This document shows, piece by piece, positions 42,073 to 60,214 of a stretch of DNA of 64,000 bases. The stretch spans positions 34,614-98,613 of the IMG/VR virus record IMGVR_UViG_3300028888_000006; one strand, 5' to 3'. Both the position numbers and the translations under genes were made by a program. How positions within the stretch are numbered: position 1 is the first letter of the stretch; each line of letters starts with the position of its first letter. The notes under the pieces were generated by a model that saw only the letters and a list, made by a program, of their open reading frames with translations, was not told the DNA's origin and ran no database searches. The DNA is from a virus (taxonomy: Duplodnaviria > Caudoviricetes).

Positions 42073-42248
42073 TAATCATTGTTCAACCACGGCTTCGTAT
42101 TGTCCCAAATGCCACCGCCATAACAGGAGCGGATCCATGTCCATATTATCCGCGAGCCCTTCCTTATTTCGAGAAAGACCCTTTTCACGAATGCGGATAC
42201 CGGCCTTATAATGGCGACAATCTTCTTTGTTCCACCAGGATATATCAT
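42057..42248 (-). CDS. 63-aa Trp-rich adaptor peptide (copy 1)
   Basis: IRSCYGGGIWDNTKPWLNNDYWK. Confidence 0.7.
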   Translation of the reverse strand: MIYPGGTKKIVAIIRPVSAFVKRVFLEIRKGSRIIWTWIRSCYGGGIWDNTKPWLNNDYWKDG

Positions 42249-43174
42249 ACCGGCCTATCCTCATATGTGATATAATATTTGTTGGCATCAAATATCGTGA
42301 TCCGGTCCATGTCTTCTTCCGTACAAAACACAAGAGAATCTTTTCTGATGTAATCGTCAAGACTCATCTCCGTAGTTCCGACCTGCAACCACTCGTAATT
42401 GAGTCCATCATATTGCGTTATGTAACGGTTGTATTCATTCGTATTGCCGACCTGAACGAAATATACCGCATCCAATGTGAGCGAAGATGGCTCTGGAAGC
42501 GTAGCGACAACTACCTGTCTTGGATTGTCAATGCCAGGATCACCACGCTCTCCCTTCAGACCGGAAAACGATATGGATAATCTCCCGTCAAGCAACTCGG
42601 TCGTAGCTGTCGGATTACCAGTCGTCCTGTCTGCGGAAACAACCACCTCATCTACACCAGCGGGGCCTCTTTCTCCGGTGTCTCCCTTGTCCCCCTTATC
42701 GCCCTTGTCACCTTTTTCGCCTCGATCGCCCTTGTCACCCTTGTCGCCTTTAGGGCCGATATCTCCCTGAAATCCCCTCGGGCCCCGCGCACCAGTCTGG
42801 CCAACATCACCGGTTTCTCCCTTGTCGCCACGATCGCCTTTATCTCCTTTTTCACCGCGCTCTCCGGTTTCGCCCTTATCGCCTTTCTCGCCCTTATCAC
42901 CCTTCACAAACCTGTCCGCGATGGAAACTATTGCCTTGTACGCTTCCATCGAGTTGGTATAAGACTCGGAGAGCAGACCGAACATGCACGAGCCGTGAAC
43001 GCCCAGATCCCTGCATTCCACAAGAACATATCTCTTCCCGTCTGAGCCATTCCTATTTCCGGAATTCTTCAGATACTGGAACGCCGCCCTCTCGTTCTCG
43101 GCAGAAACAAGGGCCAGACCGGATTCTGCTCCGACCGTGAACGAGATGACGTATAAGTGAAATGCCTCTGACAT
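42245..43174 (-). CDS. Collagen-like fibre protein
   Basis: Long G-D/E-K repeat run at about 42660-42905. Confidence 0.8.
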   Translation of the reverse strand: MSEAFHLYVISFTVGAESGLALVSAENERAAFQYLKNSGNRNGSDGKRYVLVECRDLGVHGSCMFGLLSESYTNSMEAYKAIVSIADRFVKGDKGEKGDKGETGERGEKGDKGDRGDKGETGDVGQTGARGPRGFQGDIGPKGDKGDKGDRGEKGDKGDKGDKGDTGERGPAGVDEVVVSADRTTGNPTATTELLDGRLSISFSGLKGERGDPGIDNPRQVVVATLPEPSSLTLDAVYFVQVGNTNEYNRYITQYDGLNYEWLQVGTTEMSLDDYIRKDSLVFCTEEDMDRITIFDANKYYITYEDRPV

Positions 43175-43269: not shown

Positions 43270-45642
43270 TTACTTCCTTATCTTAGATATGGCCTCTCGT
43301 ATCTGCTCCGGAGAATATCGCTGAAGTAAACCACCATCCGCATGCCATTTGGCGGCATTCCGTGCAAAATTGGCTTTCTTTACCATGGCGGGAGAGTAAT
43401 TCTCCTTGTTTGCAAGCACATGAGATGCGAATGCCTGGACGGATTTTCCGTGTTTCTTTGCTGCGGCAGTGAATGTGCCCCGTTTCGAAGGGGCAATATG
43501 AATAGAACCGCCATCTTTACGGAAGATAGGATATTCATTCTCGAGCGTATCGAGCTCCTCGAGAAGAACCTTGTTTCGTCCAAGTTCCTTTCCGCCGGAA
43601 TATCTCTTGTAATTCTTCCGGATAAGGTCGAGATTCCCGGAATGGAAACCCTCCATCAGCTTCGGAAACTTCGCAAGCCCGGGATTGTACGAGTAATCCA
43701 CCAGGATACTCTGAGACTTATCGCTCAATTTATCCCATTCACCTTCGCCATACTTCCCGTCATAAACTCTCTTGGCCGCATTATAATATCTCTGTGCAAG
43801 CGTATCGGCGAATTGCGCAGCCTGCTCGTCCGTCAAGTATCCCTGCTTCAAAGCAAGCGCCGCTTCCGGTGTACCATTAGACAACTTGATACCATAGGCA
43901 ATCGTGTCCGCCCCGCCTTCTATGGATTTATGCGGATACCATCTCCCGGTCTTCGCATCCCATCCTCCACTTGCGCTCGCCTTTGAATTCTCAACCGCCA
44001 TTATTCTTCTCGCGGCATCTTTCACCGGATCCAGCATGGAAACCGGAGATTCTTCCGGCAAAGATACGCCATATCCGGCGGCGGGAACTTCAACAACAGC
44101 CTCTCTCGGGGCGGGGACAGGATAATCTACAATCATCCCGGTACTGGCCGGAGCCTGATAATCGCCAAAGTCAGGCTGAGGACGGAAACGCAAAGGAGTT
44201 TCTATGGGATAATTGATGGGCATCATCGGCTGATACATCAGCGGAGATTCGTTCTGTAAATTCGTGCGGAAGAATTTACCGCCGTCGGGATACTTCTTGC
44301 CGCCACAAGCCAGATATCTTCCGTCACTAAGGTCAAAAGTATATGTCTGCTCAGGATGTACAGCCTTCGGAACACCACCACGCGTGTGACTCCAGATAAC
44401 ATCACTCACACCGGGCCCATCGCTAATATTCCTCAACAATAATCCTTTCGGAGCACCCTCCATTTCCTTTAGCGCCGTAGCAATTTGGTCTGTGGTAAGA
44501 AATCGCCCCTCAAGACCCGGCATTTCACGGCCAAGGTATTTATGACTCTCCATATTTGCTTTATTATATAACTCGGAATACTTTTCGTAGTTAGCATCAT
44601 CTCCGAAATCATAATAATGACGAGCCTTTGAAATTAAATCCTTTACACGTTTCTGAGCTTCAGCATATTTATCCGGATCATTCGTTATCCAATTCCATTT
44701 TGCCCCGCCAAAATCACCAGCATCTACAATCTCTCCCTTCGGAGTAATCAACGTCAACAATCCCGGACTTCCATCAGGAGATTTTGCCCTGCCCGTATAA
44801 TACTCCGCCCTTATCTTGTCGCCACCATATATCGAAGGATAACCCGAATGAACATCTCTCCAATCGCGGCCAAGTCTCATTCCTTCCGTCGGGTCAAGAC
44901 CACGATACCAAAAATCAACACCATTCGGATACGCCCTTCTAAATTCGTCCAAACGCATAGACGCCGCGAACTCGTCAGGAATAACGAGCTTATCTCCAAA
45001 CAAATCTACCTGATTCGTCTCAAGCGGTGCGTCAATCCCGGAATTTGCGCGGTCTATCAACCTGCCTATCTGTATTCTTTTCGGCTCTATTACTCGAGAA
45101 ACGACATTTCTTCCACTCGAATAGTAATTATTACCCGGAGAAAGAATCTTAGCGTAATCAGACAAATCAATCGCATCGGACCCAAGACGGAACGCATCGC
45201 GAGCCCTACCAGCTAACCTACTCGCTGCGTTAGCCCCAAATCCAATAAGCCCGGCAAGAGCAGCATCTCGAATAACCTTTCCATAATTTCCATTCGCGGC
45301 ATCAGCCCCCATGTGGCCTAGCCAATTAATAGCCCCAACGGGGCCAGGAATAAATCCGGATACAGTATCAACGGTATCGAAAATATTCTTCCCGGCAGAA
45401 GAAATCGCGCCCGTGACTCCAGTCTCCATCTCTTTCTTCGCAACCCCGTCAGGAAGAAACCTACGATCTATCCCGCTCCTTACATCGTCGCCCTCGTTAT
45501 AGTATAACGAACGAAAATCATCAGGCGCATTTTTCCTTAACCATTTTCTCGCAGCAGCAGCCCCGGCATTATCTGCCCATAATCCGCCCGGATGACTAAC
45601 CGCCCACTCGATGATTCTGTTTTTGTAATCTTGCTCAGGCAT
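43270..45642 (-). CDS. Multi-domain putative virion cargo protein (pre-toxin-like, ART-like, lysozyme-like, xGG motifs)
   Basis: See finding; lysozyme-like EN..W.PHKSIEGG..TIAYG.K...DYSYN.G; C-terminal GGSIHI...KKANFARNA.KW. Confidence 0.7.
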   Translation of the reverse strand: MPEQDYKNRIIEWAVSHPGGLWADNAGAAAARKWLRKNAPDDFRSLYYNEGDDVRSGIDRRFLPDGVAKKEMETGVTGAISSAGKNIFDTVDTVSGFIPGPVGAINWLGHMGADAANGNYGKVIRDAALAGLIGFGANAASRLAGRARDAFRLGSDAIDLSDYAKILSPGNNYYSSGRNVVSRVIEPKRIQIGRLIDRANSGIDAPLETNQVDLFGDKLVIPDEFAASMRLDEFRRAYPNGVDFWYRGLDPTEGMRLGRDWRDVHSGYPSIYGGDKIRAEYYTGRAKSPDGSPGLLTLITPKGEIVDAGDFGGAKWNWITNDPDKYAEAQKRVKDLISKARHYYDFGDDANYEKYSELYNKANMESHKYLGREMPGLEGRFLTTDQIATALKEMEGAPKGLLLRNISDGPGVSDVIWSHTRGGVPKAVHPEQTYTFDLSDGRYLACGGKKYPDGGKFFRTNLQNESPLMYQPMMPINYPIETPLRFRPQPDFGDYQAPASTGMIVDYPVPAPREAVVEVPAAGYGVSLPEESPVSMLDPVKDAARRIMAVENSKASASGGWDAKTGRWYPHKSIEGGADTIAYGIKLSNGTPEAALALKQGYLTDEQAAQFADTLAQRYYNAAKRVYDGKYGEGEWDKLSDKSQSILVDYSYNPGLAKFPKLMEGFHSGNLDLIRKNYKRYSGGKELGRNKVLLEELDTLENEYPIFRKDGGSIHIAPSKRGTFTAAAKKHGKSVQAFASHVLANKENYSPAMVKKANFARNAAKWHADGGLLQRYSPEQIREAISKIRK

Positions 45643-45726
45643 AACTCTTCAATTATGCCGCAAGAATACGAAAAATTCCGGCTACAAGAACCGGAATAAA
45701 CATTATCATTATCAGCCAAAATAAAT

Positions 45727-58722: not shown

Positions 58723-58940
58723 TGGACTTTGAGAAATATTTGTCGGAACTTGAATCCGATAAAACAATTATTTTTAACCTTCAAAAGAAGTATCATTCTT
58801 TTCTCATTGAGCATATGAAGAAGAGAAAGAATGAACGCGACTCCTCATGGAATAAAACGCGCAACATGCTTTTTCATATCTCCGGCGCTTTGTCGATGGC
58901 GGGCAACGGCATTCGGTCTTACTTAAAAGATGACAAGTAA
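58722..58940 (+). CDS. Hypothetical protein
   Basis: TAATG coupling at both ends. Confidence 0.6.
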   Translation: MDFEKYLSELESDKTIIFNLQKKYHSFLIEHMKKRKNERDSSWNKTRNMLFHISGALSMAGNGIRSYLKDDK

Positions 58941-60214
58941 TGGATTTTGAGAAAGTTTGTACAATCTTTACGATGCAGGAGCCATATTATGGTATCTTGT
59001 TGTCGGCAATGGACAGGTTTCCCACAAATGAGACTAAGACGATAGGCGTTCGTCGTTCCGGCAATGTGTTCAGGCTTGGCTATAATCCCGACTTCATTGA
59101 AGACAAGGATCTGCCTACGATGATGGCGTTGTTGAAGCATGAGACTCTTCATCTTGCCTTGAACCATTTGACTCTTTGGGACGAGACTAATTGCAGTGAT
59201 GAGGAACATTTTCTTCATAATCTTGCAGGCGATCTCGAAGCGAACTGTTACATCGACTTCAGCAACGTGAAAGGAATTAATCCGATGCTTCCGGAAAAAT
59301 TCGGCTGGGATAGATCGCTTGGTACGATGGAGTATTATAAGCGTCTTTGTCAGATAATGCCTCCGCCACAGCAAAAGCTGGCTAATCAGCCCAATAATCC
59401 GTGTAATGGCGGGCAGGGAGGTCAGGGCGAGCAGAATGGACGAGGAAAGTCTAACGGTAAAAAAGATAAGAATTCTTCGCAATTGTCCGAACAAATGAAA
59501 CAGTATGAGGACGATGCGATGGATGACCATTCTAAGTGGCCTAAGGGAATGACTGAAGAGCAACGGCTTGACACGAAGCAGGCTATCGATGATCTATGTG
59601 TGTTCGCCGCTGAAGAAGTCGAAAAGAGTTGCGGTAAGATTCCAGGAGAGATGGTCGGCAGAATAACGGCTATTCGCGAGAAGAAGAAACCGAGACCCGT
59701 CACCGATTGGAAGAAACACTTCCGTCGTTATATCGGTAATGAGTTCTCCGATCAGATCAAGAAATCCCGCAAGAGAGAATCCATGAGATTCCCCGATGCC
59801 GCAGGAAACCGTCACAAGCGGAAATCTCATATCCTTGTCGCCATTGACACTTCCGGTTCGGTATCCATGCCTGAATATCGTGAGTTCCTTGGTCAGTTGA
59901 GGACGATGAAGGATATTACTTTCCATGTGGTGGAATGTGATGCCTCGATTCAGTATGAATACGACTTCAATGGAACCATTCACGAGAAACTGCATGGTGG
60001 TGGTGGAACCAGTTTCTATCCGCCGATCAAGATGTATCTGGACAACCGCAAGAAATATGAAGGAATCGTTTATTTCACTGATGGAGAATGCGAAGTCCCT
60101 AATATCACGCCTAAGGAAACCCTTTGGGTCATTTCTTCGAAAGGCAGTAAAGACAGACAGAAATTCTCCAGAAACGGAGCGAAGGTATTATTTATCCCGC
60201 CTAAACAACAGTAA
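58940..60214 (+). CDS. Metallopeptidase-like + vWA protein (DUF2201-type)
   Basis: HETLH; DTSGS MIDAS motif; GGGGT; YFTDG. Confidence 0.88.
   Translation: MDFEKVCTIFTMQEPYYGILLSAMDRFPTNETKTIGVRRSGNVFRLGYNPDFIEDKDLPTMMALLKHETLHLALNHLTLWDETNCSDEEHFLHNLAGDLEANCYIDFSNVKGINPMLPEKFGWDRSLGTMEYYKRLCQIMPPPQQKLANQPNNPCNGGQGGQGEQNGRGKSNGKKDKNSSQLSEQMKQYEDDAMDDHSKWPKGMTEEQRLDTKQAIDDLCVFAAEEVEKSCGKIPGEMVGRITAIREKKKPRPVTDWKKHFRRYIGNEFSDQIKKSRKRESMRFPDAAGNRHKRKSHILVAIDTSGSVSMPEYREFLGQLRTMKDITFHVVECDASIQYEYDFNGTIHEKLHGGGGTSFYPPIKMYLDNRKKYEGIVYFTDGECEVPNITPKETLWVISSKGSKDRQKFSRNGAKVLFIPPKQQ

Follow-up and report, generated by a model that had tools for sequence, protein, structure and literature searches.

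Introduction

No other phages are as abundant in the human gut as the crassviruses. To our knowledge, little has been established on their passage through the Bacteroides envelope or on the cargo that they inject. In other phages, T7 gp16 carries a wall-cutting domain on an ejected protein, and T4 Alt is a packaged ADP-ribosyltransferase (ART) that is delivered together with the DNA. Here we analyzed the gene at positions 43270-45642 (minus strand) of a 64,000-nucleotide stretch of DNA, hereafter the window, which covers bases 34614-98613 of the complete 98,613-bp virus record IMGVR_UViG_3300028888_000006. Its product (P0001, hereafter the target protein) is a variant of the phage polyvalent or ejection proteins, in which an ART-like predicted fold (module M3), a T4-lysozyme-like fold (M5) and a basic module shared with a crassvirus cargo protein (M6) are joined in one chain of 790 amino acids (aa). 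The logic that we propose for it is the same as that of T7 gp16 and T4 Alt, with no sequence relationship to either. T7 gp16 uses an SLT fold, as does P0002, a relative of the target protein, whereas the target protein itself uses GH24; T4 Alt, a member of the R-S-E Alt/VIP2 clade, is a protein in its own right, unlike the fused domain found here.

Two described systems were compared with this locus. Gp45 of crAss001, the cargo protein C1 (PF25725), has been detected by experiment in virions, where it binds the portal and the tail barrel (Bayfield et al. 2023, PMC10172136). M6 is common to gp45 and the target protein, and so are joints marked by GG, an N-terminal segment rich in Gly and long linkers without structure. 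In some C1 orthologues there is, as in the target protein, a GH24-like domain, which in them lies between M6 and the CARG1 domain. Unlike gp45, the target protein has no CARG1 and no match to the Gly-rich transmembrane (TM) region of gp45, and it is encoded by a separate gene at another locus, while gp45 has no ART-like domain.

The second system is that of the polyvalent proteins of phages and conjugative elements; for injected phage proteins of this kind, lysozyme together with ART has been described (Iyer, Burroughs, Anand, de Souza and Aravind 2017, PMC5512222), a combination also predicted in the one chain of the target protein. A late or structural context and highly variable architectures are common to both: GH24 and ART-like folds, shuffled architectures and a position in a structural block were all found here. 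One homologue, P0037, carries a true ART-PolyVal domain, and the fold matches in BFVD include PolyVal ARTs. The target protein differs from ART-PolyVal (PF18760, the Tox-ART-HYD2 clade) in giving no profile match and in having R247 where that clade has His, and it is without a metallopeptidase or other hallmark domain of the original polyvalent set. Compared with the GH24 lysozymes (T4 lysozyme, phage 21 R21, DLP12 endolysin and the muramidase domain of pesticin), it falls below the PF00959 threshold, carries ~23 inserted residues that separate the catalytic Glu from the D-T motif, and embeds the domain in a 790-aa chain. The original prediction, made from the sequence of the window, had framed the protein as a polymorphic toxin; the phage polyvalent or ejection protein is the better frame.

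A mosaic of modules exchanged among relatives

Whole-protein searches were of little use for this protein. Pfam gave nothing on the 790-aa chain at E <= 1, the lone weak row, HolB_lid (E 0.036), being dismissed as noise, and the NCBIfam and PDB sequence searches gave no useful match. The lone PHROGs match was phrog_20603, of unknown function, at aa 716-760. At the level of single modules the picture was richer, and a search of 5.8 billion proteins found 1537 that have at least one module in common with the target protein, almost none of them colinear with it. We drew the module borders from homology breakpoints (BLAST segments) in 120 relatives. Many relatives start matching at aa 442-458, and most start at 709-711 and end at 773-776. 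On these segments, M5 spans aa ~530-709 and M6 aa 709-776. The modules recur in other orders among the relatives, with M6 at times twice per protein, and the other positions in these proteins hold SLT, Phage_lysozyme, ART-PolyVal, PG_binding_1 or crAss_CARG1. The N-terminal module M1 is common only to P0002, P0004 and, distantly, P0058 and P0064.

Two close relatives display the exchange directly. P0002 is near-identical to the target protein as far as ~aa 508, then has SLT in place of GH24, and becomes near-identical once more at the GG that precedes M6; P0003 is 90% identical over aa 457-790 and has a different N-terminal domain. A recombination breakpoint inside the lysozyme domain, indicated by the BLAST range of P0002 (q1-561), was rejected after the alignment showed that identity ends near aa 508. 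For synteny we used the IMG/VR loci. An M6-bearing protein occupies the same slot in four related contigs, at lengths of 448-1376 aa and with differing module content. On one side the slot is bordered in three contigs (L004, L005 and L012) by a homologue of a divergently transcribed 753-aa open reading frame (ORF), which has helicase, primase and terminase-like matches in PHROG; on the other side, in three contigs (L004, L007 and L012), lie the genes that lead to the terminase. These comparisons support the reading that effector and hydrolase cassettes are swappable at one genomic slot, as the original prediction had proposed for the effector.

The same prediction had taken the base composition of the N-terminal half as a sign of a chimera. 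The difference is modest, with a GC content of 0.47 against 0.50 and a third-position GC content (GC3) of 0.41 against 0.52, which is ~1.4 standard deviations of the between-ORF spread. The chimera itself fares well, because the mosaic homologues give it much better support than composition does.

The C-terminal module is shared with cargo protein C1

M6 aligns with residues 371-430 of crAss001 gp45 at 40% identity (E 2e-7; profile E 1e-14), so that the likeness to crAss cargo proteins claimed for the C-terminal module is upheld. In gp45 this stretch immediately precedes the portal-bound domain, residues 425-552, and segment 214-245 lines the tail barrel (PMC10172136). Among the 80 M6-bearing proteins in the viral-contig loci recovered with the query, M6 adjoins CARG1 in 43; the order M6-GH24-CARG1 occurs in four, and a GH24-type lysozyme therefore lies inside C1 in some crassviruses, cr128_1 among them. 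Most of the remaining carriers are without CARG1, including proteins of 1,750-3,000 aa, and in cr128_1 the carrier is the gene after the muzzle gene. M6 stands mid-chain in proteins of 1,757-3,014 aa from other crassvirus contigs (L067:1209-10253, L068:3867-11057, L076:1185-9815 and L081:5307-10580), three of which (L067, L068 and L081) received no functional annotation from PHROGs. In Suoliviridae, M6 is a free-standing gene of 71-75 aa, located between the portal gene and that of the major capsid protein and labelled 'transcriptional regulator' (L086:6007-6234 in cr10_1 and L085:5977-6192 in cr1_1). A 'peptidase' next to the free-standing gene of cr10_1 was considered as a maturation protease and rejected, Pfam showing only a sub-threshold match to aRib (Ig-like).

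M6 is strongly conserved. Portal similarity was the sole criterion for choosing 23 near-complete genomes, of which 21 have exactly one copy. Among phages whose portals are ~50% identical, M6 is 73-93% identical in amino acids and only 62-71% identical in nucleotides; identical codons make up 25-41% at conserved residues, and synonymous sites are saturated. Because the protein is conserved while synonymous sites are saturated, M6 is under strong purifying selection, and recent transfer or a DNA-level recombination site was ruled out as the source of its conservation. The module has an isoelectric point of 10.8 and is modelled as three helices (pLDDT 76-83). The C-terminal helix that follows it, for which the model places helices at its residues 331-348, travels with M6 at the extreme C-terminus of many relatives (q711-790, 80-93% identity). 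A complex prediction of portal and M6 scored 0.00 where the mark was 0.32, the partner being poorly folded, and counts neither for nor against binding.

The phage's own C1 is split into two adjacent ORFs (G000:C1:26757-30197, minus strand), 4.4-7.9 kb before base 1 of the window. The 276-aa ORF matches gp45 42-212, and the 868-aa ORF (G000:26757-29363), the single CARG1 match in the genome, has CARG1 at its very start and matches gp45 430-804. Residues 213-429 of gp45, the part with M6, are missing from this C1, and the target protein holds the one M6 of the genome. Since C1 is split and without M6 and the sole copy sits in the target protein, M6 has, as judged from these genes, evidently moved carrier in this lineage.

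A T4-lysozyme fold adjoins the C-terminal module

The predicted structure of M5 has the T4-lysozyme fold. Foldseek matched it to T4 lysozyme, R21, SpmX and AbLys1 with prob 0.99-1.0 and TMt ~0.6. PF00959 had no match to M5 or anywhere in the genome, and the PDB sequence-profile search also returned nothing. The muramidase proposed at aa ~545-705 is thus recovered by fold and not by Pfam. Residues E551, E575, D579 and T580 hardly vary across 42 sequences; E551 falls at Glu11 of T4 lysozyme by range arithmetic, and E575, D579 and T580 are candidate counterparts of Asp20 and Thr26. The predicted fold and these residues suggest that M5 is a muramidase.

The linker M4 in front of it has pLDDT < 56 and no secondary structure, yet 46 homologues conserve its sequence, possibly as a segment for threading or a motif for binding.

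A rare middle domain with an ART-like predicted fold

M3 is rare: when 1.84 billion cluster representatives were searched exhaustively with HMMER, 12 proteins had it; word searches limited to M3 and to the ART-PolyVal region of P0037 gave two proteins each. By BLAST segments the domain extends over aa ~160-441. The N-terminal model, covering aa 1-458 and built from 16 sequences, has pLDDT 75-95 across aa 187-445, and a variable helical-hairpin insert lies within M3 at aa ~320-375. The predicted structure superposes on ART catalytic domains across most of the domain. Against PDB, nearly all chains listed by Foldseek were of PARP, exotoxin A, cholix, diphtheria toxin or RES, all at E >= 0.2. In BFVD several matches were named 'PolyVal ADP-ribosyltransferase' or 'ART-PolyVal-like' (best single-domain E 2e-3, prob 1.0, TMt 0.62). 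Searching ESM Atlas by structure returned RES, ART-PolyVal, arginine-ART and PARP/exotoxin rows, and searching it by features returned ART-PolyVal clusters (0.86 and 0.85) that serve as leads only.

To map the putative active site, we counted back from the alignment end-points, assuming no gaps near the range ends, and assigned strands from the model and the alignment ranges. The catalytic glutamates of diphtheria toxin (E148), exotoxin A (E553) and cholix (E581) all land on residue 414, and His21 of diphtheria toxin lands on R247. Position 414 is Glu in 11 of 13 family members and Asp in the other 2, the target protein and its closest relative. The residue at 247 is Arg in 13 of the 14 members of the M3 family and Lys in one, Y282 is invariant (14/14), and position 272 is always aromatic; altogether the conserved residues are D213, R247, Y268, the aromatic 272, A279, Y282, W316, D385, D408, E/D414 and K426. 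The ART clade of the polyvalent proteins has His in strand 1, Tyr in strand 2 and Asp in strand 5 (PMC5512222). This His-Tyr-Asp site was not found in the M3 family, with Arg or Lys at the strand-1 position in 14/14 members, and at sequence level the strand-1 Arg sets the family apart from the ART-PolyVal clade.

PF18760 matched neither the protein nor, at E <= 10, any part of the genome, a comparison of the M3 profile by hhalign with two true ART-PolyVal members gave a probability of 0.1 (a weak test, with two sequences only), and PDB profile searches with alignments A1 and A2 found no match. Of the ART domain in the original prediction, an ART-like predicted fold stands with moderate support, and membership in the ART-PolyVal family falls on both the sequence and the putative site. 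On the strength of the model, M3 is likely an ART-fold domain of an undescribed family and a putative enzyme.

The Gly/Ala-rich segment

M2 is found at other positions in 16 homologues. It is predicted to be helical, with pLDDT < 50 (aa 68-186 are all under 50). This segment had been likened to pre-toxin TG linkers, a proposal that found no support: PF14449 (PT-TG) had no match in the whole phage genome at E <= 10, and no Pfam family matched the protein at E <= 1. The M2 profile gave no match to gp45, its Gly-rich TM region included. That M2 is membrane-active is only a guess.

GG pairs at the module joints

All strings quoted in the original prediction are present in the translation of this ORF. 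FWYRG lies at aa 244-248, SIY at 270-272, AEYY at 279-282 and GLLLRNISD at 400-408; further on come ACGG at 445-448, PDGG at 452-455, KDGG at 709-712, GGSIHI...ARNAAKW at 711-765 and ADGG at 768-771. The placing of xGG motifs at domain boundaries is confirmed, since the borders were found independently by the homology breakpoints. Of 87 distinct M6 copies, 92-97% have a GG at both ends. Every M3-family member has two GG in the joint that follows M3, several members run from this joint straight into M6, and P0003 keeps the joint at aa 442-458 behind an unrelated N-terminal domain. From the GG that flank M6 and the kept joint after M3, it is therefore right that xGG marks joints. GG dipeptides are not enriched overall (11 observed against 8.5 expected), and they also occur inside domains, at aa 273, 312, 559 and 576. 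The pattern is explained by flexible hinges and tolerated recombination points as well as by cleavage.

Genomic setting and coordinates

The 98,613-bp record has direct terminal repeats. On the minus strand, PHROG families recognized the large terminase, portal and major capsid protein of a crassvirus. Portals of Steigviridae (among them cr128_1, IAS virus, and Kehishuvirus and Kolpuevirus phages) are 53-55% identical to this one. By these genes, the host phage is a Steigviridae-like crassvirus of the gut. The target gene, the sole ORF of such size at its locus, stands at the head of a minus-strand block that continues into collagen-like fibre genes (42245-43174), the first of them being the next gene downstream, and a 2031-aa ORF. 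Terminator-like hairpins lie on both sides of the gene, which suggests that it could be a separately terminated unit within the structural block. Elsewhere in the window, an ORF at 58940-60214 (plus strand) combines DUF2201_N, a putative metallopeptidase, with a VWA-like DUF2201 domain. The coordinates of the gene, its modules and the hairpins are given in Table 1.

Table 1 Position of the gene, the protein modules and the flanking hairpins in the window.
Feature	Residues (aa)	Position	Strand	Basis or remark
Whole ORF (P0001)	1-790	43270..45642	-	790 aa + stop, no internal stops
M1, short helical N-terminal region, role unassigned	1-75	45418..45642	-	predicted helices, pLDDT 65-76
M2, Gly/Ala-rich helical segment	76-158	45169..45417	-	portable module
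M3, rare ART-like predicted fold	187-441	44320..45084	-	model and fold matches
Joint motif with two GG (ACGG, PDGG)	442-458	44269..44319	-	kept in relatives
M4, Pro-rich linker, conserved, predicted disordered	442-533	44044..44319	-	model and homologues
M5, GH24 (T4-lysozyme-like) muramidase fold	534-709	43516..44043	-	Foldseek
M6, basic three-helix module, GG on both sides	709-773	43324..43518	-	homology to gp45
C-terminal helix	774-790	43273..43323	-	kept with M6; model helices
Terminator-like hairpin, just upstream of the gene		45675..45697	-	consensus scan only
Terminator-like hairpin, just downstream of the stop codon		43212..43234	-	consensus scan only

Discussion

We favor, as somewhat probable, the reading that the target protein is a 'polyvalent' mosaic carried in the virion, probably expressed late, taken up by the particle and expelled through the tail at infection. 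It would be loaded and would leave through the tail in the manner of the crAss001 cargo proteins and T7 gp16, with M6 tying it to the cargo and ejection machinery. M2 might be membrane-active, the GH24 muramidase would open the peptidoglycan locally, and the ART-fold domain, connected to the muramidase by the disordered Pro-rich linker M4, would act on a host target after entry.

Several observations weigh against this reading. Virion presence is established for crAss001 gp45 only, and the target protein is known here from its gene alone. CARG1, the portal-binding domain, is absent from the target protein and lies in another gene, and the maximal Kyte-Doolittle mean of M2 is 1.1, below a classical TM helix. 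For M3, searches with Pfam, PF18760, hhalign and the PDB profiles gave no link to any ART in sequence or profile, and the Ser of the R-S-E type is not conserved in the family. The wide fold search of the N-terminal model was filled by the helical-hairpin insert (aa 320-370) and was uninformative on the core domain because that insert dominated it. Finally, no other peptidoglycan hydrolase was found in the genome in a search with PF00959, PF01510, PF01520, PF01464 and PF01832 only.

This last result leads to the main rival, a role in lysis, since a muramidase with no other peptidoglycan hydrolase found beside it could serve that purpose. The protein would then be an unusually large endolysin acting from within, unpackaged, with its extra domains used for regulation or targeting. 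GH24 is the sole peptidoglycan hydrolase detected in the 98.6-kb genome, in which the crAss001 peptidoglycan hydrolase Gp89 has no homologue and ten further ORFs that were checked belong to no lysin family, and one M6-bearing relative (H19) is named 'putative endolysin/lysozyme' in one database record. We nevertheless consider a lysis enzyme unlikely: the chain has 790 aa with five non-lytic modules, the gene heads a structural block with no adjoining holin-like gene, and M6 and a related lysozyme sit inside the virion cargo protein C1 of relatives. Moreover, crAss001 has a small separate lysis hydrolase in another genome region, and the lysin negative covers five Pfam families only. A different enzyme-based alternative makes the protein a fixed lysin of the tail tip or tail lumen, not ejected cargo, with a middle domain that is a non-catalytic binding or scaffold part. 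The gene lies directly upstream of the collagen-like fibre genes, the M6-bearing relative H29 is annotated 'tail lysozyme', and part of crAss001 gp45 is stored in the tail barrel (PMC10172136); in M3, the unconserved R-S-E Ser and the Asp where most relatives have Glu would fit a non-catalytic domain. Little credence is given to this alternative, because no tail-fibre, baseplate or tail-needle family matches the protein in Pfam or PHROGs, and a long disordered linker with portable modules is more in keeping with an extruded chain than with a rigid part of the tail. Nor does Asp414 have to signal inactivity, because Asp is the native strand-5 residue of the polyvalent ART clade (PMC5512222).

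The original prediction had a capsid-loaded polyprotein that is cut at xGG; in such a reading, a protease would release a free muramidase, a free effector and a small basic peptide. Cleavage draws on the GG that flank nearly all M6 copies and on the GG joint after M3 in every family member, with breakpoints that fall on the joints, and a free M6 peptide is viable because M6 is a free-standing gene in Suoliviridae. Against it, no protease specific for xGG was found, and we know of none with such specificity; the 'peptidase' of cr10_1 offers only the sub-threshold aRib match. GG pairs occur within domains too and are ordinary flexible joints and tolerated recombination points. Gp45 was modelled as one chain spanning tail, portal and capsid across the M6 region, peptides were reported from several of its regions, and cleavage is never mentioned (PMC10172136); the crAss001 papers make no statement on gp45 processing. 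Cleavage at xGG is a minority hypothesis, and we regard it as quite improbable.

Returning to the ejected virion protein, a bolder version of it concerns M6. Here M6 would be a portable, single-copy coupler, near-universal in crassviruses, to the portal and ejection apparatus or to the packaged DNA. Cassettes fused to it (GH24 and an Arg-Tyr-Glu/Asp type of ART not recognized before) could thereby be loaded, and in this lineage it would have moved to the target protein from C1, now split at that point. We offer this version tentatively, as an unlikely one.

The N4 ejectosome paper left the source of wall cutting during ejection open for N4, in which it presumably acts in trans (PMC13434306). 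For crassvirus ejection, the family analyzed here is a concrete candidate for the wall-cutting activity, and its wall-cutting and effector cassettes are swapped at a single genomic slot. With the middle domain, the ADP-ribosyltransferase fold may gain a new branch. M6, whose 65 residues show more conservation than the portal and which occurs once per genome, on proteins that differ, would give a handle on cargo loading or ejection in these phages.

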